The notes under the pieces: generated by a model
What the model saw: the letters and a program-made list of their open reading frames with translations, nothing else
Told to the model about the DNA's origin: nothing
Databases searched by the model: none
Shown here: positions 40,808 to 61,022 of the stretch, piece after piece
Numbering within the stretch: position 1 is the first letter of the stretch
Layout of the letters: each line of letters starts with the position of its first letter
Program-made: the position numbers and the translations under genes
Virus record (IMG/VR): IMGVR_UViG_3300005529_000008
Location: 1,739 to 65,738 of that record
Source of the DNA: a virus
Lineage: Duplodnaviria > Caudoviricetes
Direction: 5' to 3' (one strand)
DNA length: 64,000 nt

Positions 40808-41179
40808 ATGGCGAAAAAATCGGCAAAATTGGGTAAAAATCGCACCAAGCGGGGAAGACCACGTAAAGAAGTGTTCTTACAGGTCTCCCAGCGCGAATAC
40901 GACTCGTGGCTCGCGCAAATCGAGCACTGGCAGGGGATGTTTGAGCGTGAGCAGCGCCGTGCTGATGCGCTGGTGGATCAGGTTTTAGTGGAGGGTGGGC
41001 GTGCGCCGGTTTCACACGTTGAGAATCGTGCTGGTACGGTCGATATGCAAAAAGCGGCGCGGGAAATGTTCGAGCAGATGAACGTGGCGATGTCGGATGG
41101 GGATGGGAGTGATTTTATCGATGAGAACGATATGGTGCGGATTGCGCCGGATGCCGTAGCGGCCCTTGGGGGTAAGTGA
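40808..41179 (+). CDS. hypothetical protein between terminase and portal
   Basis: coupled ORF with its own TAAAAT element. Confidence 0.65.
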   Translation: MAKKSAKLGKNRTKRGRPRKEVFLQVSQREYDSWLAQIEHWQGMFEREQRRADALVDQVLVEGGRAPVSHVENRAGTVDMQKAAREMFEQMNVAMSDGDGSDFIDENDMVRIAPDAVAALGGK

Positions 41180-43671
41180 TGGCGGATATGATGAGTGCGG
41201 CGCTTGGGGCGTTGAGCGGTGGAGTAGGCGGTGCGGATAGCGGCGTGCCGGGGATTTCTGGCAGCACGGTCAAACCTCCCGCACCCGACCCGTATGAACT
41301 TTCGAAGGACAATAAGAAAGCCGCGTCGGATTTAATTGACAAGTATTTGAAAGTCAACGCTGCGACTCGCACGTCTTTCGAGTGGGGGTGGTTTCGAAAT
41401 TTATGTTTACTCGCGGGCGCGCACGATATTGTGAAGTTGCAGGGCCAGGTAAAAGTGCGCCCGATGCCCCGATATTACTCTCGCGTCTATACGAATAAAA
41501 TCGCTGAGAAACACTCGCAACTTCTCTCCGCATTAATGACGGGCCGCGTACCGATCAAACACTCCCCCGCGACCGATGATGATAAGGCGCGTGGCACGGC
41601 GGAGGTGGCGGAGCGCGTACGCGAGGTAATTTACGCCGAAGCAAAACTCGATTATAAGGAAAATGAAGCGGGAAGTTGGTTCTGGGCCACGGGTAATGTA
41701 TTTATGCACCCGTATTATTCGTATGATGAGCGGCATGGCACTACGGAAGTTCCAAAGTTAGAGTGTCCGACGTGTAAGGAGACGTTTAGCACAAGTGAAG
41801 TTGAAGAACCGGGTGTTGAGGATGAACAGGACGAGCAAGCCGCGTCTCCTCCCGCGCCAAACTGCCCAACTTGTGCCGCGCAGGGCGTAGCCTCACCGCT
41901 CGGTCCGTCCGAAGAAGTAGATCTTCTTCCAATCGGCGCACTATGCGCGGATGTGCTTTCGCCGTTCGAAATACGTGGTGATTTGCGGATTCGTGACGTG
42001 CGAGATTGGAACTGGTTTATCCGTGTGAGACGGTACGATTTATCTTACGCACAGGAGACGCTGGGTTATAAGGGTGGCGAGGAGGATAATGTCGATACCG
42101 GTAACACGCTTTCGCAACACTACCTTGATGTGATTGCGGCGCTTAACGAGCAATTCAATCCGCAAGGAGGTTTTGGCGGGTTAGGAAGCACGAATCAGGG
42201 TTCGCAGAAAGTGCCGAAAGTTACCGCATATGAGCTTTATATGCTGCCGAACGCGCAGTTTCCGCAGGGACTTTGCGTGGTACGAATTGGCAAGGAAGCG
42301 TCGAACGTTACACAAATAGTGCCGTTAGATTCTGAATATGGCGCGGGTGTGAAGAAGGGTAAGAAATTTCTCCCGCTCGTGCATGGTCGCGCCGAGACAT
42401 TATGCGGGCGGATGTGGGGGAAGACTCCGCTTGATGATGTGGTGCCGTTACAGTATTTTCGCAATCGTGTGGAACGTGCGCTTGATACTGAATATAAGCG
42501 GATGGTCAATTCACTGTGGATGAATCCCAAGGGATCGGGCGTTGATAACTTCACCGGCGAAGGCGGCCAAGTAATGACGTATAACCCGATGGTGTTGGGA
42601 GGTACGGCGGTTGCGAAGCCCGAGAGATTAGTGCCGCAACTTCAATATCTTCAGTATTACATTGAGTTTCTAAAATATCTTGACGATCAGATTGAACGAG
42701 TATCACTCACATATTTTCTTGCTGGGGGCCAAGCGCCGGCTGGGGTAGACGCCGCTAGCGCGTTGAATTTACTCGATCAGCGTAGTAAGCGCGCACTCTC
42801 ACCAGCTACCCGCGAATGGGCGAAGATGTGGTTGCAGCTTGATGAGATGATGTTGGAGCTGGCGAGAAAGCACTGGGGCGATCGTCGTATCAATGTAGCG
42901 ACTGGTAAAAATACGGCGTGGGAAGTCCAGTCGTTTATGGCGTCCGATTTAGTGGGCGCAATTACGATGGAGATTGATTATGAGGCGCTATTTCCCAAGT
43001 CTGAAGCCACCACGCACGCGATGATTACGCAACTCATTCAGGGCGGCGTTATTAATCCGCAAGACCCCGAACAGAAGTATGAAGTATTACGAGTGTTCGG
43101 ATTCTTAAAAATGCAGGGCGATGTGAACGATCATACGAAGGTGGCGCAGCGCGAGAACGATGAGTATATGAAGTCGATTCAGACAGGCGCGCCTAAGTTA
43201 CCCCAGATGATACCGATGGTTGATAATTCAATGATTCACATTAAGGAGCATATCAAGCTGGGCACAACACAGGAGTTTCGCGCGTTGCCGCCACAGCTAC
43301 AACAGCCGATGTTGGAGCACATACAGGCGCATTTTGTGGAGGAGGGACAGAAGCGTGCGTTGTTGGCAGAGATGCAAGTCAACCCTGATGCGCCAGGAGC
43401 GACCGATATTACAGGAGCGGATGCACAGGCCGCGTTGGGTGGTGCGAGCCAGGTGATACAGGCGGCGCAGCAAGGTGGCGCAAGTGCGCAACAGTCTCCA
43501 AATGGGTCGGGGCGGGTGGGGAATCAAGTGGGGAGTCGGACGCCGAAGGGTACGACAGGAAACGGGCCGAATCAAGCTGCGGCGACACAAGCGCGGCAGA
43601 AACAGGTTATGACACAGCCGATACCAGACCCAGCGCAAGAAGCCGCGAAGTCGATATTTGGGAGCGGGTAA
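41176..43671 (+). CDS. portal protein with Zn-ribbon insertion
   Basis: 831 aa following terL; SPFE, WG...DD..PLQ...N, SA.AL..L motifs; CPTC...CPTC insert. Confidence 0.85.
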   Translation: MMADMMSAALGALSGGVGGADSGVPGISGSTVKPPAPDPYELSKDNKKAASDLIDKYLKVNAATRTSFEWGWFRNLCLLAGAHDIVKLQGQVKVRPMPRYYSRVYTNKIAEKHSQLLSALMTGRVPIKHSPATDDDKARGTAEVAERVREVIYAEAKLDYKENEAGSWFWATGNVFMHPYYSYDERHGTTEVPKLECPTCKETFSTSEVEEPGVEDEQDEQAASPPAPNCPTCAAQGVASPLGPSEEVDLLPIGALCADVLSPFEIRGDLRIRDVRDWNWFIRVRRYDLSYAQETLGYKGGEEDNVDTGNTLSQHYLDVIAALNEQFNPQGGFGGLGSTNQGSQKVPKVTAYELYMLPNAQFPQGLCVVRIGKEASNVTQIVPLDSEYGAGVKKGKKFLPLVHGRAETLCGRMWGKTPLDDVVPLQYFRNRVERALDTEYKRMVNSLWMNPKGSGVDNFTGEGGQVMTYNPMVLGGTAVAKPERLVPQLQYLQYYIEFLKYLDDQIERVSLTYFLAGGQAPAGVDAASALNLLDQRSKRALSPATREWAKMWLQLDEMMLELARKHWGDRRINVATGKNTAWEVQSFMASDLVGAITMEIDYEALFPKSEATTHAMITQLIQGGVINPQDPEQKYEVLRVFGFLKMQGDVNDHTKVAQRENDEYMKSIQTGAPKLPQMIPMVDNSMIHIKEHIKLGTTQEFRALPPQLQQPMLEHIQAHFVEEGQKRALLAEMQVNPDAPGATDITGADAQAALGGASQVIQAAQQGGASAQQSPNGSGRVGNQVGSRTPKGTTGNGPNQAAATQARQKQVMTQPIPDPAQEAAKSIFGSG

Positions 43672-45598: not shown

Positions 45599-45715
45599 GT
45601 TTTGTAAGATTCGTGAGACGTTGTTCTCATAAAGTTTTGTAAGATGTGCGAACCCCAGTGCTACTCACGCGGGGGATTTTGAAGTAAGTTGCGGGCTACT
45701 CCCGCAGAGGTGATT

Positions 45716-46696
45716 GTGGAAGATAATGTGGATCTGAATCTTGCTACTCAGGATGACGGCCAGGGCAATGTTGGGGCCAATGACAACAACAATGGTGGGA
45801 GCGGCGACGGCTCTCAACAACAGCAATACTTTCTCGATATCAACGAACGAACGCGGTATAAGACGGCAGATGACGCGAAGCGAGGCTACTCCCAGCTTCA
45901 AGAAAAAGTCACCTCCTTCTCGCCAATCGAGCGCACGTTAAAGCAGTACTATGGGGACAAGTTCACTCCCGAGGTGCTGTCGGCTCACTTGGCGGATTAT
46001 GTGCGGCGTTTGGAAGCGGATAGCGCGAAAGAGGCCGAAGAAGCGAAGGCGAAGTTGTCGAAAGACGATGCTGCGCGCTTCGAAGGCAAGTCGGCGGAAG
46101 AGATTAAGCAGATTCGCGCCGCTGAGAAGTGGTTCCAGTCCGAGGCCGAACGCCTCGGGTACGTGTCGAAAGACGCGTTGAAAAAGCTGGAAGATAAGCT
46201 CGCGAAGATCGAAAACGCGCCCGTTGAGCAGAGTAAGTCTGCGAACGACGCGATGACTTCCGCAGGGACAGCAGAGTTACAGAAGTGGCTGGGCGAGTCG
46301 AAGGTGGTGTTAAACGACACCGAGATGGCTCGACTTGGGAAGCGAATTGTCGCTTATATCGATGGCGATGATGAGCTGACCCAGAAGTGGGTAGACGCCG
46401 CACAAAGCCGCAACAAGGCCGAGTGTTTCGCGTTGATTCGCGAGGCGGCGAATTTTGCGTTGCCTCTTGTAAAGTCGGGCGCGAAGCTTATCGATCCCGC
46501 TGCCACGCAACGTTCTGCTGTCGCAACGAAAACCAAGCTGATCGCAACCACGCCTAAGCCGCTGCCGAAACCCGGCGCCGGTAAGGAAGTGCAAGTTGAA
46601 CCTCCCCCGCCCCGTCCGACACAACGCGGTCTGCGTAAGCCGAACCTGACCCAAGCAGCGATGGCGTTGATGGAGGAGATGGAAGCGCAGGGGTAG
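45716..46696 (+). CDS. capsid scaffolding protein
   Basis: charged helical protein just upstream of the MCP; YKT.DDA..GY..LQ; AGAGGTGA RBS before GTG 45716. Confidence 0.7.
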   Translation: MEDNVDLNLATQDDGQGNVGANDNNNGGSGDGSQQQQYFLDINERTRYKTADDAKRGYSQLQEKVTSFSPIERTLKQYYGDKFTPEVLSAHLADYVRRLEADSAKEAEEAKAKLSKDDAARFEGKSAEEIKQIRAAEKWFQSEAERLGYVSKDALKKLEDKLAKIENAPVEQSKSANDAMTSAGTAELQKWLGESKVVLNDTEMARLGKRIVAYIDGDDELTQKWVDAAQSRNKAECFALIREAANFALPLVKSGAKLIDPAATQRSAVATKTKLIATTPKPLPKPGAGKEVQVEPPPPRPTQRGLRKPNLTQAAMALMEEMEAQG

Positions 46697-46740
46697 TGAG
46701 GTCGATCAGCGACACACGATTTTGGAAAAGGAAAACGACA

Positions 46741-48132
46741 ATGAGTAGCACATTTTATAGCAAGTTTTACAGTACGCACGTTGAGATTGATATCGCGAGT
46801 GGCGCGATTATGTCTCGTGATATCGTGCCGTATGAAGGGCCGTGGGAGGGCGCGATGGGGCTGGAAACGGCCACCGCGACCGCCATTCTGAAAACCGTGT
46901 ATGAGGGAGATTTGAAAGAACAGATCAACCAAGATACCACGGCGTTGAAATATATCGTTGACGGTGATATGACCGGGAAGAAATGGGAAGGCGCGAAGGT
47001 CGTGGTTGCGTTGCACACAAAGCGCAACTCCGGCGTGAAGGCGATCGCGCTCAACACTGGCCAGATCCCCCAAGCCGGCAACCAGGGTACGGCCAACGCA
47101 GAAATCAACATGAAGAAGTGGTTCGGGCATATCCAGCTCACCGCAGATATCATGGCGCAGGCCAAGACCAATAAGGGCGCGTTTGTCAACGCCCTCACGA
47201 TGGAGCAGGAGGGGATGGTCAATGACATCTCCCGCCAGCGAAATCGCGGGTTGAATTATTTCGGCCAGGGTACGTTGGCGGTTGTATCGGCGGGCGCAAA
47301 TTCCGCGACACAGGCCATTAAAGACCCCGGCAATGTGGTCGGTACGGTCAATCCCGAGCGTTTTATTAAGGTCGGAGATGTGATTGCTATTACCTCCAGC
47401 GACGGTACCGTGCTGCGCGGCGTTCAGACCGTGTTGTCGATTACCACGCCGAACGTCGTGTTCGATGCGGCAATTAACACCACCACCGGCGACTTGCTCT
47501 CGTTCGGTTCCAATAGCGTGGCCCCGGGTGAGTCGAGCTTCAATGCCGAGCCAATTGGACTGTTGGGTTTGATCGATTCCACCACCTACGTGTCGAATGC
47601 TTATACCATCGACCGCTCCTTGGCCGCGAATGCCTTCTGGCGCTCGAACGTTCTAACCAGCGTGGGAAGTTTGAATCCCGACTTACTCAACCGTGCTATT
47701 CAGAATAATCACGAAATCTCGGGGAAGAAGATCAAGAAAATGTACACGCACTATGGCGTGGCCCGCGAAATCTTGAAACTGACCGAGCAGGACAAGCGGT
47801 ACAATGTTCAGCCCGGTAATAAAGGCTCGTCCTTCCAAGCCGGTCCCGAGGATGAGGAATTTGGATTTGGCGGGAAAGACGGCACCGCAGACCGCGACGC
47901 CCCCTACGGTACGCTATTCATGTTCCCCGAGGACGGGTATCTTGAGCGGTACGAGCTGGGCGAGAGCGGCTGGGCAGAGGAAGATGGGAATCTCTTCCTG
48001 CGCGCACAGTTCTACGACCAGTATGAGGCAAGGTATCGGTTGCGTGAGCAGTTTTTCAATTCGCGACCGAATGCTTTTACGAGGCTTGACGGGATCACGA
48101 ATACTGTAAGTTCGGGCGCGTTCGGGCTGTAA
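46741..48132 (+). CDS. major capsid protein (with ~38-aa N-terminal leader; alternative start at 46855)
   Basis: AILK.VY...L.EQ.N, GL.GLI, YEA.......RPNA..RL.GI; strong terminator downstream. Confidence 0.85.
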   Translation: MSSTFYSKFYSTHVEIDIASGAIMSRDIVPYEGPWEGAMGLETATATAILKTVYEGDLKEQINQDTTALKYIVDGDMTGKKWEGAKVVVALHTKRNSGVKAIALNTGQIPQAGNQGTANAEINMKKWFGHIQLTADIMAQAKTNKGAFVNALTMEQEGMVNDISRQRNRGLNYFGQGTLAVVSAGANSATQAIKDPGNVVGTVNPERFIKVGDVIAITSSDGTVLRGVQTVLSITTPNVVFDAAINTTTGDLLSFGSNSVAPGESSFNAEPIGLLGLIDSTTYVSNAYTIDRSLAANAFWRSNVLTSVGSLNPDLLNRAIQNNHEISGKKIKKMYTHYGVAREILKLTEQDKRYNVQPGNKGSSFQAGPEDEEFGFGGKDGTADRDAPYGTLFMFPEDGYLERYELGESGWAEEDGNLFLRAQFYDQYEARYRLREQFFNSRPNAFTRLDGITNTVSSGAFGL

Positions 48133-48153
48133 GGCTTGACGGGATCACGAATA
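48082..48153 (+). repeat. 22-bp direct repeat at the capsid gene 3' end
   Basis: AGGCTTGACGGGATCACGAATA at 48082-48103 and 48132-48153. Confidence 0.9.
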
Positions 48154-48157
48154 TTTT

Positions 48158-48184
48158 GGGCACTTAGAAATAAGTGCCCTTTTT
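48158..48184 (+). terminator. intrinsic terminator
   Basis: GGGCACTTA-GAAA-TAAGTGCCC followed by TTTTT. Confidence 0.85.
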
Positions 48185-48290
48185 ATTTGCGCAAAGTAAA
48201 TTTACGTGCCCCCGCTGATAAAATACAACTAGGGGCGCAACTTGCGTCTCAATTCTGCGGGCTACTCCCGCGTAAAATGGGGCGTGTGAG

Positions 48291-48797
48291 ATGGATGGAA
48301 AAATTGTCGCGTTGAGGCTTACCGATAATCCGAAGATTTTGGAAGTGTTGCGCGAGAGAGGCGCATTGAGGCCCGATCCCAATAATGAGGAGAAAGAGAC
48401 TTACTGGGCCATGTTTAACGGGCGACCGTTCGGCTTCTGCGCCGGGAAAGTTATCAGTCTACCGGAGAATGTGGCGACGTGTTTGCGCAATTTACAACCC
48501 CTTATGGGGGGCACGCCGACTAAGCGTAAGAATGCGTTGGGCGAAGATTACGTATATCGAAGCTCCTACGACGCCCAGTGGACGCCAGTATTGGACGTGG
48601 TGGAAAGCTGGGGCGTTGGTGACGAGGCTCCAAGCGTTAAGGCACTACGAAAGACCCAGTGCGGCGTGTGCGAGAAGTCATTCGCATCCGTACGAGAGCT
48701 GGCCGCGCATCTTAACGAACATATCGACGATGAGCAGGGTACGCCAGCCATCTCGAAATCCAACGGTAAATCCCACCTTCTCGGAGCGCCAAAATAA
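48291..48797 (+). CDS. hypothetical protein with C2H2 zinc finger
   Basis: CGVCEKSF.....L..HLNEH. Confidence 0.7.
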   Translation: MDGKIVALRLTDNPKILEVLRERGALRPDPNNEEKETYWAMFNGRPFGFCAGKVISLPENVATCLRNLQPLMGGTPTKRKNALGEDYVYRSSYDAQWTPVLDVVESWGVGDEAPSVKALRKTQCGVCEKSFASVRELAAHLNEHIDDEQGTPAISKSNGKSHLLGAPK

Positions 48798-49405
48798 TGC
48801 GTCCGCCACAGGGATTTCTTAACACGCTACAAATCATGGACGCCCTACTTGACTTGCGGTGGGGCGACTATGTTGGGAAGTGGGTGGTGGAACGCAAGGC
48901 CGTGACGCCCCCGCACGAGTTGGTGTGGTTGATACGGCGGCGTGAGAGAGAAGCGCAAGATATTCGCGCAGGTCTCGCCACACCGCAAGACATACTTGAC
49001 TTCGCGGGTTTGAATGAGGAAATTCTCTCTCTCCAGCGCGGGAAGCGGGTGATCGTATTCGCGGACCAGCTCACGCCGGAACTTTACAATAAACTCTGCT
49101 ACTCCGATATCAAGCGATATGGCGGGTATTCGCGCTATGCCGATGCGATGCAGGCGAGGAAGGATGCGAAGAAGGCGGCGCGCGTGAAAGACCGGCGCGA
49201 GTTTCTGCGCGACCTGAATATCGAAGCGTTTGGCACGGAACATTCGCGGGGGATATATGATTTTCTTACTGATAAGCGCCGCACGGGGTTGATGGAGGAC
49301 GTGAAGAGGGGATCGCGCACGTTACATGATGTGCTTGGCGTGAAACCTGGCGAGAAGCTTGTCGGACGTGGTGGAGATCGGCGCATTCAAGTTGTGGGAG
49401 GGTAA
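48797..49405 (+). CDS. hypothetical protein
   Basis: coupled ORF in the structural operon. Confidence 0.65.
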   Translation: MRPPQGFLNTLQIMDALLDLRWGDYVGKWVVERKAVTPPHELVWLIRRREREAQDIRAGLATPQDILDFAGLNEEILSLQRGKRVIVFADQLTPELYNKLCYSDIKRYGGYSRYADAMQARKDAKKAARVKDRREFLRDLNIEAFGTEHSRGIYDFLTDKRRTGLMEDVKRGSRTLHDVLGVKPGEKLVGRGGDRRIQVVGG

Positions 49406-49410
49406 ATTAC

Positions 49411-50121
49411 GTGGCCGTTCAATACTCCGAACTTCTCTCGCAAGTCCTGGCGCGTGTGTCGGGCAAGGGCAACGCATTCACGACCGATCAGTACCGTTCG
49501 TTTATCAACGAGGGTAAGGATGAGCTGTGGAAGGCTCTGGTTGCGACCACGGACGATTATTTTTTACAATCCACCGTCACCACGCCCTCGAACGCCGTCA
49601 ATCTCTTCGCGCCGCTGTCATTAACGGTGCGCGAGTACGTCCTACCCGGCGACTGTCTTAAGCCTCGCTTTATCGAAGTGCTCGGCCCCGCTGGGTACGA
49701 GATGACCCAGTTTATATACCGCAAAATCCACCACCCCGACTTTCAAGACCAGCGGAATCTATCCACGCAAAACGGGCCGCAGGGAGCGTCGGATGCGTTT
49801 CTCACCGCTGACGCGTATTATTACACGATTGTGGGAAAGAATACGTTGATGTTGGCGCGATATCCCGAGGTCGCGTTCACGTTAAAAGTGTGGTACGTGC
49901 GCGCCCTACCGGATATGGATGTGGGAAGTTCGATCGACGAGACTGTGGTTCCGTTTAAGTCCGATATAGTGAACTTCGCGGTGAAGCGATGTGAGCTGGT
50001 CGCGGACGCGGACGGCTTCGCGGGGTGGTTAGAAAGTTGGAAGGCGAGTATCGTGGAGACGGTGCAAGCGGCGGGGCCGCGTAGCGAGGGGGCGATTTTT
50101 GTACAGGATGCGGAATATTAA
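49411..50121 (+). CDS. head-tail adaptor / tail tubular protein A-like
   Basis: FINEG..EL, EY.LP.D, P.....L.VWY patterns; position after the MCP. Confidence 0.6.
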   Translation: MAVQYSELLSQVLARVSGKGNAFTTDQYRSFINEGKDELWKALVATTDDYFLQSTVTTPSNAVNLFAPLSLTVREYVLPGDCLKPRFIEVLGPAGYEMTQFIYRKIHHPDFQDQRNLSTQNGPQGASDAFLTADAYYYTIVGKNTLMLARYPEVAFTLKVWYVRALPDMDVGSSIDETVVPFKSDIVNFAVKRCELVADADGFAGWLESWKASIVETVQAAGPRSEGAIFVQDAEY

Positions 50122-50124
50122 ATT

Positions 50125-50466
50125 TTACTTAAAAAGACTCTCTACTCTTTTAATCGCCTCGTCCCGTCTCTCATAACTTTCGCGTGTCGTTGGAGAAGTT
50201 TCTATCGAAAACACGCTCCAAGTATCGCCCTCGCCACAATTAAAAACATGCGCGACTTCACGGTGAGATTGGTCTTCGATATAGAAATCTTCCTCGCCCG
50301 AAGTACACACTCTCTGTGTTTTCCAATGATAAGTTTTTAGTGCTTTTGGCGGGCAAAATCGCGCCGCTATTTCATTCCAAGGTTGATAGCGTATTGTGAG
50401 AATTACTATAACAATAATTAAAATCGTTCTCAACGGAAATCGTGATTTTTCAAACGCCGTTTTCAT
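50125..50466 (-). CDS. antisense membrane-anchored hypothetical protein
   Basis: N-terminal TM; directly follows the deaminase gene. Confidence 0.5.
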   Translation of the reverse strand: MKTAFEKSRFPLRTILIIVIVILTIRYQPWNEIAARFCPPKALKTYHWKTQRVCTSGEEDFYIEDQSHREVAHVFNCGEGDTWSVFSIETSPTTRESYERRDEAIKRVESLFK

Positions 50467-50468
50467 AA

Positions 50469-50927
50469 TTATTTCGCTTCTCCAATACTTCCTTCGAGAA
50501 AAATAACTTTTACTTTCGCTTCGAATAACATCACTCCAACCACGGTAAAATCCGCGCCCCATTTCGGGTCGTTGAAATCCGGTTTGAATGCGACGAGTGT
50601 TTTAATCCCGCTTTGGATTAAGGCTCGTGCGCAATCGGCGCATGGATACCAGGGGATATATGCGGCACAGCCTTCTAGCGATACACCAATTCGTGCGGCG
50701 TTATAAATCGCATTCCGTTCTGCGTGTTCTGTCCAAGCGTATTTATCGGGACGTTGGTTGCGTAAGGCTACACTGTCATTACAACCTCTTGGAAAACCAT
50801 TAAATCCAGTTGTTCGAATCTCCCCTGCGCTCCCAACGATCACACAACCGGTTTTTCGCGAGGCGTCTTTGCTCCATTGTGAAATATGTACCGCGAGATC
50901 CATGAATCTTTTGTGCCAGTCGGCCAT
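50469..50927 (-). CDS. dCMP deaminase
   Basis: SKD...K.GC.I, GFNG.PRG, HAERNAI, PC.DC..ALIQ.GI; AGGAGG RBS. Confidence 0.92.
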   Translation of the reverse strand: MADWHKRFMDLAVHISQWSKDASRKTGCVIVGSAGEIRTTGFNGFPRGCNDSVALRNQRPDKYAWTEHAERNAIYNAARIGVSLEGCAAYIPWYPCADCARALIQSGIKTLVAFKPDFNDPKWGADFTVVGVMLFEAKVKVIFLEGSIGEAK

Positions 50928-50962
50928 AACTTCCTCCTAGTAAAATAAGTATAGACACAACT

Positions 50963-53182
50963 ATGCCAAAAAAGCAAGCTAGCTCGAAAGAAACTTCCGG
51001 CACGTTTAACCTGTCCACGGCCTCTGAAAATACTTATGCCGGCCAAGACGCACAGGAAGCGGCTGGAGCGCGGCGTGTATTGTCGATGATCCCCAAAATC
51101 TCCGGCGAGATGGTGCGCGAGTTGGGACAGGCGAAGTATTTACCGACGCAGCTTCCCACGAAAATCGGCGCGTTGATGGATTATCCGTACAACGATTCTA
51201 ACGGTGTGCGCCAGTCTGTGCGCTTCGCCGTCGCCACGTCCGATAATATCGTGTTTGCGTTATATAAAGAAGTCGCCGGTGCGTGGGTTGTGCAGACCCT
51301 TCCGCTCAATAACGGGCTAACTTCGAATGCGCCATTTAACGACTTCCCCCAGTTCGTAGTATTGAATAATCTTCTCCATATCACAGACGGCACCACGTCT
51401 TGGATCTACGACGGGCCGAACGCCCAGTTCGTAATTGAAGGCTTCATCATCCCGCCCGTCCCGCCGAATATTGAAAATACGGGATTTGCGGGCACGTTTA
51501 GTTGCTCGGTGGGACGTTTCTACTGGATCACCTACGCCGACCATACCGTGGGTCGCGTGCATGAATCCAGCTCGTCGCCTATTTCCACTTCGCCTGTCAA
51601 CTCCCAAGGCTCCACCGGCCCCGTGGCGAATAAGTCAATTCAAGTACAAGCGTGTCGCACGCTCGTTACCACCACGATAGGTCTCACCGCGATCACCACT
51701 GGCGCAGGCGGATTCTTCCCCCAATTCGTGGGGATGAATTTGTATATCGGCGCGGTAAATTACGGTCGTATTGCCACATTTACCGATTCCGCACATATGA
51801 TACTCGATACTCCCGCGCCTGCAAGTAACGCCGGGGTAAATTGCATCATCGCCCCGCCCCGCGCCACGCATATTCATTTCTACTGTTCTGAGACCGATGG
51901 ATCGCGGTTGGGTAAGTTTCTCACCAGTATCTCGGTGCTTGATCCGAACGACTTTATAATGGACCAGGTTCCGTTTATTACTGATCCCACGAGTACGATT
52001 TCAACAGTGGATCGCCCAATCCGCAACGACCCTCCTGCGCCCAGTAAAATCGCGGAAGTCCATAAATATCGCATCTTCCGGCGTCGCGAGGCCAAGCCAA
52101 ATTTCTTCCACTTTTCGGGAAACGAAGAAATCTCGGCGGGGAACGGGAACGGCAGTCCTCAAGAATCCTACCCTGGCGCGGCAGGCACGGTTACGATGTC
52201 CGATATCGTGGATGAACAATCTTACCCACAATCTGCCAATCGTCTTCGCGGCTTGAAATCCCACGCCGACGCGCTATGGCTCGGCACGGAAAAAGGAATC
52301 GTGCCGTTATACGGTAATTCGATCGATGACTTCGGTCTAATGCAAGTCGTGACAATTACGGGCGGCGTAATATCGCGGTGGGGGATGGAGACGACGCCGC
52401 ACGGGTTGACGATTTTCGGGTACGATCGTCTATTGAAGCTCTACCCGCCCATTTCACCAATTTACTCCATACTCCCCCAAGATCTCAATGTCACCGACCA
52501 ACTTCTCGAAATTGGTCGCCCGATGCGCAAGAAATTTCTCACGATTAAGAATGTGGACCAGGACAATGTGCGCACGCTTCATTACCAGTACAACGAACGC
52601 GACTGGTTGGTGGTGTGTTACCAAGACAATACCTCAACCTACCACACTTACATCTACGACTTTGCGATCAAAGGGTGGTTCGAGTCGCAGCGCGGTTTTG
52701 CGAGCGTGGCGGTTTTCGAACCGATAGCCGGTAATGTCATTCTTGTCGGGGGCGGCACAGACGGCTTTGTGTACGTTATTGACGATCTCTCCGGCACATT
52801 CTCCAATGCGACTTGTCCCGCCGCGATATTTCGACCCGCGCTTATCAACTTCGGTCGCCCTGATATTATGCACCAGCTTTATTCGTTGGAGTATGAGTTA
52901 ACGAACGATGCTCTCTCAGCAGACGTAACGGTGAATTTCTACCTTGACCCGCAAGACGCCGATAATCCTGGTGCACCGTTCGGCCCGTTGAATTTTGCGA
53001 AAGTCCCAAATAGTGCTGCGCGATATCGTGCGTACTTCGCCGCGACGGACGGCGTAGTGGGAACATTGTGTAAGCGTGCGCTCATCGAATTTCAAATCGC
53101 ATCTTCCACAAACACCGGGGGTTTCCGTGGTATTATGCTTAAAGCGTGGCCGGTGGATGCAGAAGTGAATCAGGCGGGTTAG
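50963..53182 (+). CDS. tail tubular protein B / nozzle-like (beta-propeller) protein
   Basis: 739 aa, beta-rich; Y.IT......ES..S, YIYDF...W, GG.DG.VY; podovirus gene order. Confidence 0.65.
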   Translation: MPKKQASSKETSGTFNLSTASENTYAGQDAQEAAGARRVLSMIPKISGEMVRELGQAKYLPTQLPTKIGALMDYPYNDSNGVRQSVRFAVATSDNIVFALYKEVAGAWVVQTLPLNNGLTSNAPFNDFPQFVVLNNLLHITDGTTSWIYDGPNAQFVIEGFIIPPVPPNIENTGFAGTFSCSVGRFYWITYADHTVGRVHESSSSPISTSPVNSQGSTGPVANKSIQVQACRTLVTTTIGLTAITTGAGGFFPQFVGMNLYIGAVNYGRIATFTDSAHMILDTPAPASNAGVNCIIAPPRATHIHFYCSETDGSRLGKFLTSISVLDPNDFIMDQVPFITDPTSTISTVDRPIRNDPPAPSKIAEVHKYRIFRRREAKPNFFHFSGNEEISAGNGNGSPQESYPGAAGTVTMSDIVDEQSYPQSANRLRGLKSHADALWLGTEKGIVPLYGNSIDDFGLMQVVTITGGVISRWGMETTPHGLTIFGYDRLLKLYPPISPIYSILPQDLNVTDQLLEIGRPMRKKFLTIKNVDQDNVRTLHYQYNERDWLVVCYQDNTSTYHTYIYDFAIKGWFESQRGFASVAVFEPIAGNVILVGGGTDGFVYVIDDLSGTFSNATCPAAIFRPALINFGRPDIMHQLYSLEYELTNDALSADVTVNFYLDPQDADNPGAPFGPLNFAKVPNSAARYRAYFAATDGVVGTLCKRALIEFQIASSTNTGGFRGIMLKAWPVDAEVNQAG

Positions 53183-53696
53183 TGCGGCGTTCGGCCATAC
53201 AGATTGTGTCATTATGGTCGGAGCCATGCGCTACAAGCAAGATTTCTTCAATTTCAAATTTATATTTCTTGCCCATCCCATTCGTGTTCCACCCGAAGAA
53301 TAGCGCAACTCCCGTTTCGTTTAAAAGCCGGTCGATTTGAACTTTCATATCGCCGCGAATCTTGCCGAGCGCATCACCCTGTTTCATTTTCACGCCGATT
53401 CCGTCGTAGCATTCTTTGACTTGACGCGGAGAATACGGCGGGTCGATTATTACGAGATCGGCTTTGCCTTCCATGTCGGTATCGGCAAGTTTCTTCATAA
53501 ACTCCGTCGCGTCCATGTGATATTGTGCGGCGGTATTTGGGTTGAGGTCGTTTGTAAATGTTGCGCCGTTGAAATTACGCGCGAAAGGGTCAACGGAAAT
53601 TGGGCACTTCGCAAGATACTTTTCAACGAACGCCCGGATTGGCGGGATGGAAAAGGTTTCGGAATTTGGCATCGACCAGACGCGAGAGATTATCAT
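53139..53696 (-). CDS. amino-DNA methyltransferase (DPPY type)
   Basis: W.MPN..TFSI.PI, DPFA, TNDLN, DPPYS.RQ, HG..HNDTI. Confidence 0.8.
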   Translation of the reverse strand: MIISRVWSMPNSETFSIPPIRAFVEKYLAKCPISVDPFARNFNGATFTNDLNPNTAAQYHMDATEFMKKLADTDMEGKADLVIIDPPYSPRQVKECYDGIGVKMKQGDALGKIRGDMKVQIDRLLNETGVALFFGWNTNGMGKKYKFEIEEILLVAHGSDHNDTICMAERRTNPPDSLLHPPATL

Positions 53697-53746
53697 GCCT
53701 TGCACTCTACCACACTCTCCTATAAAATACAACTAGGCGGTGAAAT

Positions 53747-54262
53747 TTGGCCCAACGCACAATTCCCACGATCAGTACGATTCCTCAACTGGCACAGTGG
53801 CAAGCCGGCCTGCGCGCCAACATCATGCGCGTTCTGGCGCCACCCGTGCCCGCCAATTTATCTGTGACCTCAAAACAGGGTGGGAACTATGTCACATGGT
53901 CCACGGTAAAAGGCGCGGATGGGTTCGAGTTGGACGTGTCGGAAAACGGCGATATGTCCAATGTGCTCTCAACAGTCGCGTTGCCGTCGTCGCAAAATAC
54001 TGCATATTTCGACACCGTGCCAGTGCAAGGTGGTTCGACACCGAAGACCCGCTATTACCGGGTACGCGCGACGGCGGGTACTGTGCAAAATCCCCACAAC
54101 GTTAAAGGCGTATCAAGTTCGGTAGTATCTTCCACCGCCATCGCACCGAACGACACCGTAACCGCCTCCGTCACCACTACCGACAATTCGAATCGTGACA
54201 AGATAAATATCGGGGCTGGAGGAGGCGCGTATCGAGAGCCATCTTTTGTTGACTTACCATAG
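53747..54262 (+). CDS. fibronectin type III-like virion protein
   Basis: P.PANL.V......VTW..V.GA..F, YYRVRA. Confidence 0.65.
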   Translation: MAQRTIPTISTIPQLAQWQAGLRANIMRVLAPPVPANLSVTSKQGGNYVTWSTVKGADGFELDVSENGDMSNVLSTVALPSSQNTAYFDTVPVQGGSTPKTRYYRVRATAGTVQNPHNVKGVSSSVVSSTAIAPNDTVTASVTTTDNSNRDKINIGAGGGAYREPSFVDLP

Positions 54263-54283
54263 TTTTTACGATATACTGCACGT

Positions 54284-54814
54284 ATGAAAAAAGTCTTCAC
54301 CCGCCCCCTCACGCCCGCCGATGTTCGACAACTAGATGCGTGGAGGAGAAATTTTTTGAGTGCGGACCTCGAACTGCCGCACGATTTCGACGCGCCGGGT
54401 GTAAAGACCGTGGGACTACACGAGAACCATAAACTCTTCGGTTCACTCACCGGGACGCGGGCGATAGTGCTTGATCCCTTCATTCATGATCCCTCGTATG
54501 ATGAGCAACAAGGCGCGAAGTTGATTTACGGTCTTGTGAAAGCCGACGCGATTCTTACGCAGTGGGGGCAGGAGGGTGGCGCGGTGGATTCGTATATCGC
54601 AATTCCCCGGAGCATGGAAGCTTACGTGCGGCTTCTTGATCATTACGGTTATAAACCGACTTGTGAAGGGTGCGTGATACTCCGTCGCCCCCTCGCTCCC
54701 GAAACCGTGCCGTTGCTTGGCGCGGAACGCGATGCCGCGCAACGTGCTACAAACTCGGCCACGACTTCCAAGGTTTCTGGCGAGGCACCAAACGATATCG
54801 CCAGCGACGTTTAA
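54284..54814 (+). CDS. GNAT-like acyltransferase-fold protein upstream of the ejection proteins
   Basis: RPLT.AD...L..W; ...RLLDHYGY pattern; position typical of podovirus gp13/gp14-type genes. Confidence 0.5.
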   Translation: MKKVFTRPLTPADVRQLDAWRRNFLSADLELPHDFDAPGVKTVGLHENHKLFGSLTGTRAIVLDPFIHDPSYDEQQGAKLIYGLVKADAILTQWGQEGGAVDSYIAIPRSMEAYVRLLDHYGYKPTCEGCVILRRPLAPETVPLLGAERDAAQRATNSATTSKVSGEAPNDIASDV

Positions 54815-55019
54815 ATTGTTTCGGAACCCCGAGCCAATTTAACACTTTTCCAAACCAAGTCTGTTGCTTGCGAAAACACCACATCGGGCCGTTGATGAGT
54901 AAATCGTATCGCAAACCGCGTTGTTCTTTTTTGAGCGCCGTGACAAACGCACCTTTTTCTGGTACAAGATCCTCGGATGAAAAAGATATTCTACCGCGAT
55001 AATTACGTATCGGAATCAT
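54747..55019 (-). CDS. small antisense hypothetical protein
   Basis: fills the intergenic gap; GGGG/AGGA RBS-like sequence. Confidence 0.4.
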   Translation of the reverse strand: MIPIRNYRGRISFSSEDLVPEKGAFVTALKKEQRGLRYDLLINGPMWCFRKQQTWFGKVLNWLGVPKQFKRRWRYRLVPRQKPWKSWPSL

Positions 55020-55082
55020 CCCCGTATCCTACCATACCCACCCACCTCGCGTAAACTATAATAAACACAGAGGACTTTTTCC

Positions 55083-55964
55083 ATGCCTGTGCCCCTGTAC
55101 GCTCGTTCTGCCACCTACGATATCGAAACGGGGTGGTTGTTGGATATTGATGAAGTGCCGTGGGAGGGTGCATGGGAGTTGGAAAAAAAAGGAAGAGAAA
55201 GCGAACAGCGCGTAACCGACGCTTCCCTACAAAACGCCGCGAATGATGCGCAGCGGCAGGGTGAGCAATATGGCGCGGAGAAGGGTGATCTCGCGCAACT
55301 TGATACAATTGGCGCGAATGGGTTAGGATTGGGTGCGAGTGGATATCTCGCCAATCAATTAAATTCTATCGGGCGATCTTATGGCAATGCGCGCCAGAAT
55401 GCTGCGCGTATCAACGCCTCTCGCGGGTTAGGCTCAACCCCAGAAGGCGCGTTTCAATCCAGTTTAAACGGTGCGAACTTGGGACAAGCGGGGGCGGAAA
55501 ACGAAGCGTATAACAACGCGCAAATGCTCACTCGCGACAATATGCTTCAGGCGCTTGGTGCCCGTGCCGGATTGCAAAACACATATAATCCAAACGGTGC
55601 TTTATCGGTCGGCGCACAATCCGCGTATGATCAAAATCACATGGGTAGTTTGCTTGGCGATATTGGTGCGGGATTATCAAGTGCTGCTGGAATTGTCGGG
55701 AGCGGGTTTGGTCTTGCAAATCAGGTTAAAGGCGGCGTGTGCTGGATCGCAGAGGCACTGTGGGGCGTGGATGATTTACGCACTCATATTGTGCGCGGGT
55801 GGTTAAATTATTCGCGGTTCGCAAATACTGTGTTGGGTCGCGCAATCCTGGTGCTTTACCGCACTTTCGGTCAACGCTTAGCAAAATGCCGCTGGGCGGT
55901 GTTGAAATTACGTCCGCTTTTTAACCTCGCGTTACGGCGCGCAACCACGGAGGCGTGGCAATGA
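55083..55964 (+). CDS. internal virion/ejection protein with N-terminal leader and C-terminal CFI-box-CTERM-like domain
   Basis: Gly/Ala/Asn/Gln-rich body; hydrophobic Gly-rich segment, then GGVCWIAEALWG...VR.WL...LG.....LY..FG.RLA. Confidence 0.7.
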   Translation: MPVPLYARSATYDIETGWLLDIDEVPWEGAWELEKKGRESEQRVTDASLQNAANDAQRQGEQYGAEKGDLAQLDTIGANGLGLGASGYLANQLNSIGRSYGNARQNAARINASRGLGSTPEGAFQSSLNGANLGQAGAENEAYNNAQMLTRDNMLQALGARAGLQNTYNPNGALSVGAQSAYDQNHMGSLLGDIGAGLSSAAGIVGSGFGLANQVKGGVCWIAEALWGVDDLRTHIVRGWLNYSRFANTVLGRAILVLYRTFGQRLAKCRWAVLKLRPLFNLALRRATTEAWQ

Positions 55965-57793
55965 TAGTTGATCCCAGTCTTTTACAGCCGTCGCGCAACC
56001 CTCTCACCGCTGCCGCTGGAATTCCCGATGTGTTGGCGAAGTTGCTCGGAGGCGGTACGGGAGATGGCGCGCAAGGTGATGTGCCGCCACCGGACGTTGT
56101 GCCGCGCTTGCCACAACCGAACGCGTCGAATAGCGCTGTTCCGCCTCCATCAATTGTGCCGCCCCCGTCCGCGCCGAAAGAGGACGACGTAACACCGCCA
56201 AAATCCCTTGCAGACTTGGCGCAACGCACGCAGGAGAATGTAAATGCGCCCGTCCCTCCGCCCGATGTACTAGCGGCGTCAAAAGTGGGCGAGGACGGGA
56301 GTGCGGTGCCAAATTTACCCGGAACGGTGCAAACGGCACAGGCGCCTAAACTCGCGCCGCTCCATCCCTCTCTTCTCTCGCGTATCCTGCCAATTGTAGG
56401 CGCAGTGGGCGCGGGTATGGAAGCGGCGGGAAATCGTGGCGAAGCTCCCAACGCCGCACGGTTACAAGCGACGTTACAAAATCAAGCGCAGCAACGCTTG
56501 CAAGCTGAACGACTGCACAATGTCGAAGAACCGGAAGCCGAAGCACGCGCCGCTTTACAACGCGCACAGGCCCAGTCCACGCAAAATACCGTGCCGGTTG
56601 ATGTGAACGGGCAACGTTACTACGTGCCACAATCACAACTTTCGAAAATTCTCTCACCACAAATCGCGGGGCAGTCGCGGGAGAATGTACAGACATTACG
56701 TAATACTGGAAACGTTGATGTACAGAATTTAAAGAACTCGGGTCGGATGAGTATTGAGCAGATGAAGGCGTTAATTCAACAAGGAAAAGTTGCTCGCGTT
56801 ATTCCCGGCAAAGATCCCGAGACTGGCGAGACAACTATGCTCGCCTATAATGCGCAAAATCAGCTTCTCGGAGCTGCACAGAATTCGCTTGCACCAGCAC
56901 AGTTTTATAATAAACTCACCTCCACCACCCAATATATGGCCGACGCCGCTGGAAATATCCAAGCGTTGCCGAAGAATACGGTGTCGGGGGTGCAGTTGCC
57001 GGGAAGTGTTGGAGGGATTGGGAGTGTTGTGCCGAATGCGCCGGGTAGTAATGGGGCGCGTCCACAACATAACACCGGCGCACAGCCTCCACGAGCCAGT
57101 GGCGCAACTACCGCCGCACCAATCCAAGCTCGGCCTGTCAATGGCGCAAACGGCCAGCCGATGGTTAATGCGGCGAGTACTAAATGGGTTCAGTGGCAAG
57201 ATCCAGTTTCGGGCCGTAATGTTGCCGGTCCCGCATCTATGGCGCCCCCAAATTCAAATCCCGCCCAGCTCCCCGCGCAAGAAGTGCGTGATGTGAACAA
57301 CGCTCGCCATGCGGTAAATTTGATAACAAAAACTGGCGACCTGAATAAGCCCGAAACCCAGGGAGTGTTACAGCTTCTCGATTCGCTTGATAAAGAAGGT
57401 AAGTTGGGGATTGTCGCTTCGCGGTGGAATAAATTTATAACATCGGGCGTCGGCACAAGCCCCAACGATGATCCGCGTATTATCATGCTCATCAATAAAA
57501 ATATGTTAGCTGATACTGCAACAATGCTTGCCCATTTTGGGGCAGCCGGCGGTCGATCGCCACAAATGTTGCAGCATTTTTTAGATCTTGCGAACGCTGG
57601 GAGAATGGATGGAATAACATTGCGCGCCGGTGTGATGGCGATGGCCGATTATATGAAAGACCGTGCAATGATGCCCGAGGCTACACCACAACGCACCGCG
57701 CCGCAACAGAATACTCAACCCACGCATGTCGTAAAAGTAAATGGCGTTCGAACGGGCACAGTTGTGAATAACGTGTACGTACCGGACAAATAA
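55955..57793 (+). CDS. internal virion/ejection protein
   Basis: 612 aa, Pro/Ala/Gln-rich; second of three consecutive ejection-type genes. Confidence 0.6.
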   Translation: MAMIVDPSLLQPSRNPLTAAAGIPDVLAKLLGGGTGDGAQGDVPPPDVVPRLPQPNASNSAVPPPSIVPPPSAPKEDDVTPPKSLADLAQRTQENVNAPVPPPDVLAASKVGEDGSAVPNLPGTVQTAQAPKLAPLHPSLLSRILPIVGAVGAGMEAAGNRGEAPNAARLQATLQNQAQQRLQAERLHNVEEPEAEARAALQRAQAQSTQNTVPVDVNGQRYYVPQSQLSKILSPQIAGQSRENVQTLRNTGNVDVQNLKNSGRMSIEQMKALIQQGKVARVIPGKDPETGETTMLAYNAQNQLLGAAQNSLAPAQFYNKLTSTTQYMADAAGNIQALPKNTVSGVQLPGSVGGIGSVVPNAPGSNGARPQHNTGAQPPRASGATTAAPIQARPVNGANGQPMVNAASTKWVQWQDPVSGRNVAGPASMAPPNSNPAQLPAQEVRDVNNARHAVNLITKTGDLNKPETQGVLQLLDSLDKEGKLGIVASRWNKFITSGVGTSPNDDPRIIMLINKNMLADTATMLAHFGAAGGRSPQMLQHFLDLANAGRMDGITLRAGVMAMADYMKDRAMMPEATPQRTAPQQNTQPTHVVKVNGVRTGTVVNNVYVPDK

Positions 57794-59980
57794 ATGGGAC
57801 AGAACACACAGCAAATTAAAGGTCTACCAGCGGGCGCGACGGTAGAACCGGTTGGTTCGGCGGGTGGTAGTACGGGTACGCCACAAATCAGCGGCCTACC
57901 TCCCGGCGCGTCCGTGGAAGCTATCCCGCAACTCAATAACGCCGACAAGCCCCTTCGGATGTTCCGCTCCGATACGGGCGCGGAGCAAGATGTGCCACGC
58001 AATCAAGTGGGCGATTTTGCGAAACAGGGATGGCAGGCCGGGAGTGCGCCGCAGAAGTCGGGTGCGAGTGGTGAAGGCTTTGGAACGTCCTTCGCTCACG
58101 CAGCCGGTGTTCCGGCTTCGATAAGCGAAGTTACAGATTCGGTAAAAGATAAATCGGTGCCACAACTTCTTGGCGGCGCACTTATGCGTTTCTCCCCCGC
58201 TGGAATGGCAGTGCGCGGATATCAGGCCATTTTTAACGCAGATAAAAAACTCGCGACGGGTCATCCGTTAGAGGCGGTTGAAGCGACTCCGGGCGGCGGC
58301 GCGGTTAAGAAAACGGCAGAACAAGTTGGCGAGGGAAATTATTCTGGCGCAGCGGGAACTTTACTCGGCACAGCCGCTCCGCTACTCGCTACGAAAGCTT
58401 TGGAACGCGCCGGTGTAGGCTCGGTTGATGAACAAGGAATTAAGATAAACGGAAAAGAGCCTGTAACGCGAGAAGCCGCGCGAGATAATTTAGTCAAAGC
58501 CGTCAACCCCGCCGCGTCCGATATGGGCACGATGAACGCGCATGGAGGCGGGACGGGGTTTAAAGGTAACTTGGACGCCACGCTCGATCACGTCGTGGAT
58601 GCAGGACAGAAAGGCGGATTTGCAGATAAAGTTACCGGCGCAAAAACTCCCGGACAGGCTTTGGAAACCGCTGCAATGGCCCCGGAAGCCGCATATAAAA
58701 ACCTCCCCTACTTCAAAGAGGTGATGGAACCGAACCTGGCGAAAACCGCCGACGTTACGTTCAATAACTATCGGGGCGGGAAGACGGGATATAATCAAGC
58801 AACCGTGGCGCAACTCAACGACCGGCTCACCGCGATCAATGCGGAGATGTACGGGAAGTATCAGCAAGGTGGTGCGGGTAGTGCGCGGGCCGATGCGGCG
58901 GTGAATGCCGAGCGCGTGCAATCCCTACAACAAGAAGCGGCGGGGATTCGTGATGCTCTTGATAAGACCCTTGCGCGAGAGACGGGTGTGCCGATTGACC
59001 GTTTAAAAGGGATGCGCCAGCAGTACGGCCAGCTCAAAGATGTCGCGGACACGATGAAGCTGCGCGCAGCAGAATTACAACACGGCGAGAACGCGACGGC
59101 GAACAAGACGCTTTCCGAGCAAGTTCCTTCGCATCTTTCGGTGCCGGCAGTGTTGTTGAAAACTGGCGCGAAAGTCGCGGACAAAGTGCGCGGCAACCCG
59201 GTCATCAACGGAATTCAAGATGCGTTTAAATATAAACCAACACCTCCCGCGCCGTTCAACGTAAATCCGCCCCTCGCACCCACTCCATACCAAGCGCCGA
59301 ATAACTTGCCATTCGGTCGCCCCGGCACGCAGTCATCGCTACCGCCTGAGGTTTTACGCGTGTTACAACAGGCAGAGGAACAAAACGCGTCGCCTAAAAC
59401 GATGACGGGTAAACCACTTACGGAACGCGCTCGGCGCGCCGCCAATGCTAATTTAGAAGCCGAGAGCCGCTTAAAGAACTCTTTGCCTACATCACCACCC
59501 AACGCGCCGCAGGTTGAGCCGCTGGCGCCCTCTGTAGCGGGTCCGCAGACCGGCACGTTGCCGTTGCCGAATAGGGGCGGTACTTTAAATCGGCCCCCGT
59601 TACAGCTACCCCCCGGCCCAACCGCGCCACCACAACTTCCCCAAAACGCCTCACCCATCGCGCTCCCGCCCAGCTCCGTCTCGCAGCTCATGCAGTATAT
59701 TGAGAGCGGGAGCAAGCCAGTGCCGCGCAGTGAGTTGCCGATTACGACCACACCGTCGAAACCGAACGTGGCACGCACTGCTCCACTCGCGCCAAAAAGT
59801 ACCAGCGGCGCGGTTGAGTCCTCGAATCTACCTACCGTGCGCAATATGACCACCGAGGTGAACGTAATCCACCCGGACGGCACGCCCGGTACGGTGCCCT
59901 CTGCGATGTTGCCGGAGTATTTGAGCAAAGGTTACAAGCTCGCCGCGCCGTTAGGTCGGGGCGCGTCGGGAGGGCAGTAA
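57794..59980 (+). CDS. large internal virion/ejection protein
   Basis: 728 aa; N-terminal QI.GLP.GA.VE repeat; Ala/Gly-rich. Confidence 0.6.
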   Translation: MGQNTQQIKGLPAGATVEPVGSAGGSTGTPQISGLPPGASVEAIPQLNNADKPLRMFRSDTGAEQDVPRNQVGDFAKQGWQAGSAPQKSGASGEGFGTSFAHAAGVPASISEVTDSVKDKSVPQLLGGALMRFSPAGMAVRGYQAIFNADKKLATGHPLEAVEATPGGGAVKKTAEQVGEGNYSGAAGTLLGTAAPLLATKALERAGVGSVDEQGIKINGKEPVTREAARDNLVKAVNPAASDMGTMNAHGGGTGFKGNLDATLDHVVDAGQKGGFADKVTGAKTPGQALETAAMAPEAAYKNLPYFKEVMEPNLAKTADVTFNNYRGGKTGYNQATVAQLNDRLTAINAEMYGKYQQGGAGSARADAAVNAERVQSLQQEAAGIRDALDKTLARETGVPIDRLKGMRQQYGQLKDVADTMKLRAAELQHGENATANKTLSEQVPSHLSVPAVLLKTGAKVADKVRGNPVINGIQDAFKYKPTPPAPFNVNPPLAPTPYQAPNNLPFGRPGTQSSLPPEVLRVLQQAEEQNASPKTMTGKPLTERARRAANANLEAESRLKNSLPTSPPNAPQVEPLAPSVAGPQTGTLPLPNRGGTLNRPPLQLPPGPTAPPQLPQNASPIALPPSSVSQLMQYIESGSKPVPRSELPITTTPSKPNVARTAPLAPKSTSGAVESSNLPTVRNMTTEVNVIHPDGTPGTVPSAMLPEYLSKGYKLAAPLGRGASGGQ

Positions 59981-60988: not shown

Positions 60989-61022
60989 TGATAAAATATA
61001 ACTAGCGAGGACATAAAAGTCA

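Follow-up and report, generated by a model that had tools for sequence, protein, structure and literature searches.

The 64-kb stretch of DNA analysed here (the window) is part of a viral record of 65.7 kb with direct terminal repeats, IMGVR_UViG_3300005529_000008, from a tailed phage (Caudoviricetes), and its major capsid gene opens with a leader that also heads a putative ejection protein of the same phage. The long open reading frame (ORF) of the capsid gene begins on the plus strand at ATG 46741, and its first 38 codons (46741-46854) are an insertion that is in frame with the canonical gene and encodes the motifs D-I-x-S-G and P-Y-E-G-P-W. The canonical major capsid protein of 425 aa starts at ATG 46855 and ends at 48132 (plus strand). 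It matches phrog_14242 (1.3e-42) from residue 39 of the long frame and NF033394 (capsid_maj_Podo) over residues 43-452 of that frame, with 114.2 bits against a curated cutoff of 80. Homologues begin M-G-(L/F)-D-T, and judging by these family matches it is a standard podovirus-type HK97-fold major capsid protein.

The second leader opens a plus-strand gene (55083-55964) that starts at ATG 55083 and encodes 293 aa. Residues 1-34 (55083-55184) match the leader profile with an E-value of 6.6e-20 and are followed by K-K-G-R-E (55185-55199), long helices, and a C-terminal module. That this is a gp7-like internal (ejection) protein is suggested by its place in the gene order, by its composition and helical model, and by the match of a leader-carrying relative to phrog_21132 ("DNA ejection"); a Foldseek search with the model returned coiled-coil look-alikes only.

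A six-frame search of the window for the motif VP[YWF]EG.WE returned these two N-termini and nothing else. In a local pairwise alignment, the two leaders share 11 of 27 residues with a BLOSUM62 score of 60, a value that none of 2000 shuffles reached (mean 19.4, sd 4.2, maximum 41). A profile was also built on 22 leaders taken from the 293-aa protein and its homologues, with the capsid copy left out. It recognizes the frame upstream of the capsid start with 32.3 bits (E 4.8e-9), and the best unrelated segment among 1517 six-frame segments has an E-value of 0.3. The match begins no more than 10 residues from the Met in both window copies. The resemblance is far above chance. A coincidental likeness of unrelated N-termini, for which one could cite the just 11 of 27 identities between the window copies, is already contradicted by the shuffles and by the profile, and we give it practically no weight. 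The bodies behind the leaders are unrelated, one belonging to a capsid family and the other being modelled as a hairpin followed by long helices. A leader shared by two otherwise unrelated proteins, as reported in the preliminary description of this DNA, is thus borne out, and the leader proves more widespread than described there.

Ejection-protein leaders from elsewhere resemble the capsid copy more (18 of 28 residues identical in P0232 and 19 of 28 in P0127) than the one of its own phage does, which argues against a recent internal duplication. Against a broad profile of 145 sequences, the capsid copy scores 28.7 bits and the phage's own ejection leader 22.9 bits, which argues against a decaying remnant.

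A DNA alignment with the closest loci, L002 and L003, shows where the leader entered. The bases at 46697-46740 align with those just 5' of the capsid ATG in both loci and represent the ancestral capsid 5' untranslated region, and between this conserved stretch and the capsid ATG the window has about 114 extra bases. Since the insertion lies exactly at that point, ATG 46741 now has, with respect to the 5' region, the position of the ancestral capsid start. The canonical start is preceded by the Shine-Dalgarno (SD)-like GGGAGG (46844-46849), which lies 5 bases 5' of ATG 46855 and is made by the W-E-G codons of the leader. Generic anti-SD estimates give -5.6 kcal/mol for the long start, about the middle of 16 late-gene starts, and -10.7 kcal/mol for the short start, tied strongest of the 16. 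Both starts appear plausible on these estimates, in line with the earlier caveat that GGGAGG might serve a second start.

Some further features of this region were noted. A motif near AAACGACATCGAT is conserved 20-60 bases before the capsid start in L004, L006, L008, L009, L012, and L015, and the window retains only AAACGACA, directly 5' of ATG 46741. As a repeated late promoter, AAACGACATCGAT was rejected for this phage, with 20 matches in the window vs 22.5 expected. Promoter and terminator scans around the capsid and ejection-protein genes gave nothing useful. The N-arm of the capsid protein (46855-46930; D-T-T-T-G-D-A-I-L-K-D-V-Y-E-G-P-L in many homologues) is faintly like the leader pattern D-I-E-T-G...Y-E-Y-D-G-P-V. 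The idea that the leader mimics this arm is too weakly supported to be claimed (hhalign 14.3, P 0.013, equalled by 1 of 200 column shuffles). Capsid homologues of the P0014 type also have N-terminal extensions, and these did not match the leader.

The leader belongs to a large family. Searching 1.84 billion cluster representatives with a profile of ten leaders, an approach already envisaged for finding further carriers, gave 210 that carried the leader at E<=1e-3. It comprises about 33 residues, with a beta-hairpin followed by Y-(E/D)-G-P-h-x-(E)-(C) and then K-K/G-G. The fuller pattern reads M-(K/R)-(I/V)-(Y/T)-T-(K/R)-h-h-h-D-(I/M)-(E/A)-(T/S)-G-x-h-L-x(4-5)-(Y/F)-(E/D)-Y-x-G-P-(V/I/L)-A-x-C and is followed by K-G-G, G-G-G, or K-K-G-R; homologues of the 293-aa protein retain the N-terminal module and continue with K-K-G-R-E. 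In 145 of the 150 listed representatives (of 210), the match begins within the first 10 residues, and three of the remaining five are internal repeat matches. No Pfam or PHROGs family matched the leader region in ten carriers, and no NCBIfam family matched it in six.

The proteins behind the leader are very diverse, with bodies of 150-460 residues, most of which have a high content of Gly, Ala, Gln, and Ser; 136 bodies fall into 47 BLAST groups. Mean identity is 42.6% for leaders and 20.4% for bodies, the leader being the more similar part in 2390 of 2628 pairs. The bodies of P0095 and P0096 are 95.6% identical over 248 aa and their leaders differ, with the junction at K-K-G-R-E, so the leader behaves as an exchangeable unit. 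AlphaFold2 (73 sequences) places hairpin strands at residues 5-12 and 19-26 of the 293-aa protein (pLDDT block means 79-96) and long helices from residue 30; the hairpin of the ejection-protein leader is thus confidently modelled. The usual place of the leader is on ejection proteins of soil phages that form a large and mostly uncultured group. A tblastn search of 50,697 phage records found no match for the 293-aa protein or for one of two leader queries, and the only cultured phage with a leader match among these records is the Tunturiibacter phage Tunturi_3.

In Tunturi_3 (PP885686, L033:8998-9759), the annotated start of gp23 (locus position 9028) removes the leader, which matches from 9001. 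The frame is open from just past the gp22 stop, and the leader start is probably TTG. Some leader carriers (P0207, P0242, and P0143) end in a weakly matched Hint/intein-like domain or in a Peptidase_S74 chaperone domain (3e-9), both of which are self-cleaving modules. The C-terminal module of the 293-aa protein (55740-55964; C-W-I-A-E-A...D-L-R-T-H...W-L-N) is absent from most family members and recurs at the C-terminus of the otherwise unrelated P0111-P0114, so it appears to be a second exchangeable module on this protein. In L024 (4576-7423), the leader gene lies two genes past a P22-like portal gene (PF16510, 8.7e-31), with a 173-aa ORF between them.

Capsid-type proteins have acquired the leader more than once. 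P0258, one of the 150 listed carriers, has the leader running directly into the N-terminus of the same capsid family, with Thr at the position of the Met, and over its last 23 residues it shares 96% identity with the start of the L029 capsid. Used as a single query, P0258 brought up leader loci and capsid loci, its own contig not among them. A metagenome scan added L025-L027 (L025:30-1001, L026:3001-3975, and L027:3001-3105), where the leader heads a 294-residue all-beta protein. This protein belongs to a two-jelly-roll family with 762 matches, mostly on 12-14 kb contigs. Among the 120 listed of these, 112 begin M-(G/P)-R, 3 are truncated, and 5 carry the leader, whose Cys replaces the initiator Met. 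The leaders of P0282 and P0310, two of the five, have diverged from each other yet retain the consensus.

The jelly-roll model (pTM 0.78) has two jelly-roll domains behind leader strands at residues 3-10 and 15-23, which are of lower confidence. Foldseek matched it to capsid proteins of PR772/PRD1 (P3), STIV, and PM2 with E-values of 2e-4 to 2e-3 and a TM of about 0.2, and VIA-align gave a Z of 5-7 per domain, below the level that separates real from common arrangements. Because this resemblance to PRD1-, STIV-, and PM2-type capsids is weak, the protein can be labelled a capsid protein only tentatively. The family had no relative among the viral contigs searched. A ParB-like gene is found on its contigs as well, the N-terminus of most members reads M-G-R-A-L-E, and the family may come from a small virus, or another small element, with a capsid of the jelly-roll type.

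In all three independent fusions (the window capsid, P0258, and the jelly-roll protein), the leader runs directly into the canonical N-terminus, and that N-terminus reads Met-Gly in both capsid families. P0258 and two of the five jelly-roll carriers, P0282 and P0310, have no internal Met left at the junction, and these capsid fusions must therefore be made with the leader.

We interpret the segment at 46741-46854 as the in-frame capture of a portable N-terminal leader, with the capsid protein made in two forms and the leader acting as a removable propeptide or assembly tag; to this combined reading we assign an even probability. The leader is homologous to those of ejection proteins, strictly N-terminal, exchangeable, and placed exactly on capsid N-termini, and it leaves the gene with two usable starts. 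The ancestral capsid initiation region would drive translation of a 463-aa capsid precursor from ATG 46741, and the GGGAGG that the W-E-G codons fortuitously form would drive that of the canonical 425-aa protein from ATG 46855. By analogy with other phages, the leader may be a removable propeptide or an assembly tag for proteins bound for the procapsid interior. Clipping at or near the junction would restore a Gly-first N-terminus to the capsid protein and a Lys/Gly-rich one to the ejection protein. With such removal, one would understand that capsid genes tolerate the leader, that capture always takes place at the extreme N-terminus, and that some carriers could lose the internal Met. The preliminary description had proposed a cleavable propeptide or sorting signal, a reasonable but unproven reading. 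Comparison among carriers agrees with it in the exact abutment on Met-Gly in three fusions and in the missing internal Met of three carriers, and the cleavage step itself stays conjectural.

Several observations weigh against this interpretation. The leader is missing from the capsid gene in all 21 related viral loci, which came from a capsid-alignment scan of viral contigs after a single-protein scan had found none, and from all 92 other capsid homologues, including one that is 88% identical as called. In the 8 of 21 loci with a leader-bearing ORF, that ORF is the ejection-type gene. The motif conservation on which the preliminary description had hinged is thus split, as the motif is kept in homologues of the ejection protein and not in those of the capsid protein (0 of 21 loci and 1 of 93 proteins, namely the window's own). 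Because the SD of the internal start is the stronger of the two, abundant capsid protein may come in the short form alone. The P0258 sequence is a fragment of 58 aa from a contig of 1.5 kb. A sequencing-run search found the stretch in a single run, a soil metagenome that is probably its source, with no RNA run listed, and in the source run the source contig stands alone at the stretch, with zero variants and zero joints listed there. No prohead protease family was found among 50 window ORFs scanned against Pfam, a set without the small ORFs and the 1.7 kb of the record outside the window. In P22, where a 20-residue leader of the ejection protein gp7 is removed by host OpdA, deletion of that leader is described as keeping about 60% of the burst (PMC8402733), and leaders of this kind may therefore be nearly dispensable. 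The present family also has no detectable sequence similarity to gp7, either in the leaders (profile -1.3 bits) or in the bodies (BLASTP E 1.5).

Part of this evidence would fit a recombination scar with no role in the capsid, in which the 5' end of an ejection gene was pasted in, practically all capsid protein comes from ATG 46855, and the frame before it stays silent or yields a rare, harmless by-product. The canonical ATG is retained, the internal SD is in the strongest class in the phage, the related loci and homologues are leaderless, and chance not infrequently leaves 38 codons open. Decay would not be expected to leave a capsid copy that beats the phage's own ejection leader on the broad profile, and the leader sits behind the ancestral capsid initiation region. 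The other capsid fusions, without an internal Met, must be made with the leader. A scar can be entertained for this locus, though we find it rather doubtful.

The confidently modelled and conserved hairpin, as a fold unit, raises another alternative, a docking element that is retained. An uncut hairpin would bind a partner in the procapsid (scaffold, core, portal, or the GNAT-fold neighbour described below), and the leader-bearing capsid would be a minority form with a special role, like the T7 forms. Two starts would yield such a mixed population, and ten N-terminal residues are described as enough to direct fusion proteins into T4 heads (PMC8402733). A GNAT-fold or gp14-like gene directly 5' of leader genes in the window clade, Tunturi_3, L032, and L034-L037 would supply a candidate. 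Where the internal Met is missing, every capsid subunit would bring about 4 kDa extra inside the head, and no partner has been identified. Scaffolds, moreover, differ greatly among carriers and the leader is conserved. Taken together, we regard docking without removal as unlikely.

A wider form of the removable-leader interpretation would make the leader a portable address and propeptide for the procapsid interior, read by one conserved factor that could be a host peptidase or the adjacent gp14-like GNAT-fold protein. It would be used by tailed soil phages and apparently by jelly-roll elements of about 13 kb, and capsid proteins that capture it could become obligate precursors, given the missing internal Met of P0258, P0282, and P0310. 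We put this forward as a tentative possibility. If true, lineages without a recognisable prohead protease would have gained N-terminal capsid maturation by borrowing an ejection-protein signal.

The gene directly 5' of the ejection-protein gene (54284-54814, plus strand) encodes a protein of 176 aa with an apparent GNAT fold, as the preliminary description had said. Its Atlas model (pLDDT 0.63; features 0.97) aligns over residues 1-149 to ten GNAT clusters with TM 0.63-0.67, including RimI-like (N-terminal acetyltransferase) structures. The protein has no Pfam, PHROGs, or NCBIfam match, there was no GNAT among the PDB sequence matches of its profile, and an acetyl-CoA-binding motif was not evident by eye in a 12-sequence alignment. 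The gene is syntenic in 11 related loci. The gap between it and the ejection-protein gene measures 268 bases (54815-55082) in the window and about 20 bases in L002 and L003, and a 90-aa ORF on the minus strand (54747-55019) overlaps it.

A comparable pairing recurs beyond the window clade. In Tunturi_3, the leader gene gp23 directly follows gp22, annotated by the depositors as an acetyltransferase, and in L032 a gp22-related ORF precedes the leader gene. In L034-L037, the preceding ORF of 139-141 aa is related to gp14 of P22 (BLAST 5e-6 to 2e-5; hhalign probability 51% over 106 columns), and all nine of its weak PDB sequence matches are GNAT proteins (E 0.03-0.76). The window protein has a weak collinear similarity to Tunturi_3 gp22 (P 0.0063) and no direct similarity to P22 gp14 (hhalign P 0.6). 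In L024, L028, and L031, the ORF directly 5' of the leader gene has no detectable likeness to GNAT-type proteins. As far as sequence comparison goes, the pairing of a GNAT/gp14-type gene with a leader gene therefore appears recurrent but not universal.

These genes bear on a more specific proposal, in which a JAB protease cuts the leader, exposing an N-terminal Gly, and the neighbouring GNAT-fold protein acylates that Gly. Both capturing capsid families begin Met-Gly, the ejection proteins continue with K-K/G-G, and the neighbour has RimI-like structural matches. The protease candidate is a Prok-JAB domain protein (4091-4654, minus strand; E 1.1e-5) whose 25.7 bits are borderline, just over the Pfam cutoff of 25. 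It is encoded in the early region, on the other strand and about 42 kb from the leader, nothing links it to the leader, and it is the only peptidase-like match among the 50 scanned ORFs. Its naming as the cutter in the preliminary description consequently finds no backing. The acylating half of the chain, borne out as to fold and synteny but hypothetical as to chemistry, is opposed by the lack of a visible acetyl-CoA-binding motif and of a Pfam GNAT match, and by the three loci with an upstream ORF unlike GNAT-type proteins. We judge the complete chain very improbable.

The plus-strand late genes are arranged as is usual for short-tailed phages, and tblastn found this arrangement kept in related viral contigs. 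The terminase gene (39184-40761) is followed by the gene for a portal-like protein (41176-43671), a gene for a 143-aa protein, and the gene for a scaffold-like protein of 335 aa (45689-46696); the last is syntenic in 14 loci and has no family match, and its putative role is suggested by its position. Two small proteins are encoded after the capsid gene, followed by an SU10-type adaptor (49411-50121), a 739-aa protein, and a 171-aa protein, which precede the GNAT-fold gene. Downstream of the ejection-protein gene, two large low-complexity proteins of 612 and 728 aa (55955-59980) have no family match and, from gene order, are probably internal virion proteins.

Other genes in the window include the phage's own sigma-70-family factor (9815-10453, minus strand), a C-5 cytosine methylase domain (32986-34638, plus strand), an MT-A70 methyltransferase (53139-53732, minus strand), and a weak methylase-like match (60392-61285, minus strand). 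A dCMP deaminase gene (50469-50927, minus strand) lies within the structural module and is oriented against it.

There are precedents for head proteins that share an N-terminal leader, but we did not find this family or its repeated capture by capsid genes in the literature searched. Nor did that search, which covered papers apart from their supplements, return a description of the leader or of an acetyltransferase linked to ejection proteins. The leader accounts for disagreement among gene callers over starts, as seen in the capsid protein (463 vs 425 aa), the jelly-roll family (324 vs 294 aa), and the truncated gp23 of Tunturi_3. How ejection proteins are recruited into the procapsids of short-tailed phages, and why some have N-terminal leaders, are open questions for which a conserved hairpin of 33 residues offers a concrete handle. 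That capsid proteins of two architectures have captured it exactly at the N-terminus likewise bears on recruitment. Tunturi_3 is cultured and has both a leader protein and an adjacent gene annotated as an acetyltransferase. If the leader suffices for packaging or processing, it would be a ready tag for loading cargo into phage heads.

Phage T7 makes its capsid forms 10A and 10B from one gene, the second via a C-terminal frameshift. The present phage would be like T7 in having two major capsid forms per gene, and unlike it in using alternative starts and an N-terminal module. T4 has a dedicated prohead protease, gp21, that cuts its capsid targeting sequence, and this tag is not known to be a hairpin, whereas no prohead protease was found among the 50 window ORFs scanned. 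The likeness to T4 lies in a short N-terminal tag common to packaged internal proteins, the T4 sequence of about 10 residues being described as sufficient to send fusions into heads (PMC8402733). None of the leaders of T4, P22, and 80alpha is related in sequence to the present one.

The closest parallel on the ejection-protein side would be P22 gp7, which also has a leader on a small ejection protein followed by a Lys/Gly-rich start. The mature N-terminus is K-G-G-K-G in P22 (PMC8402733; sequence record) and the corresponding residues are K-K-G-R-E or K-G-G here. Both have helical bodies rich in Gln, Ala, and Gly, a Gly-rich C-terminal part, and a small gene directly 5', which in the P22 sequence record is gene 14 preceding gene 7. 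The present leader is longer (about 33 vs 20 residues) and forms a predicted hairpin, and no capsid-borne P22 leader was found in the literature consulted.

On the capsid side, the staphylococcal-type precedent is phage 80alpha, in which the capsid and scaffolding proteins are both described as N-terminally processed by the host protease Prp, and in which pre-cleaved and uncleavable capsid mutants are viable (PMC5744158). The motif and the host group differ from those of the present leader, which is sporadic on capsid genes and not fixed on both proteins as in 80alpha, and for which cleavage is a conjecture. The two systems would be alike in having one short leader common to the major capsid protein and another head protein, and in its removal by one and the same protease, other than a prohead protease. 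As described for 80alpha, this precedent is compatible with a leader that can come and go on capsid genes.

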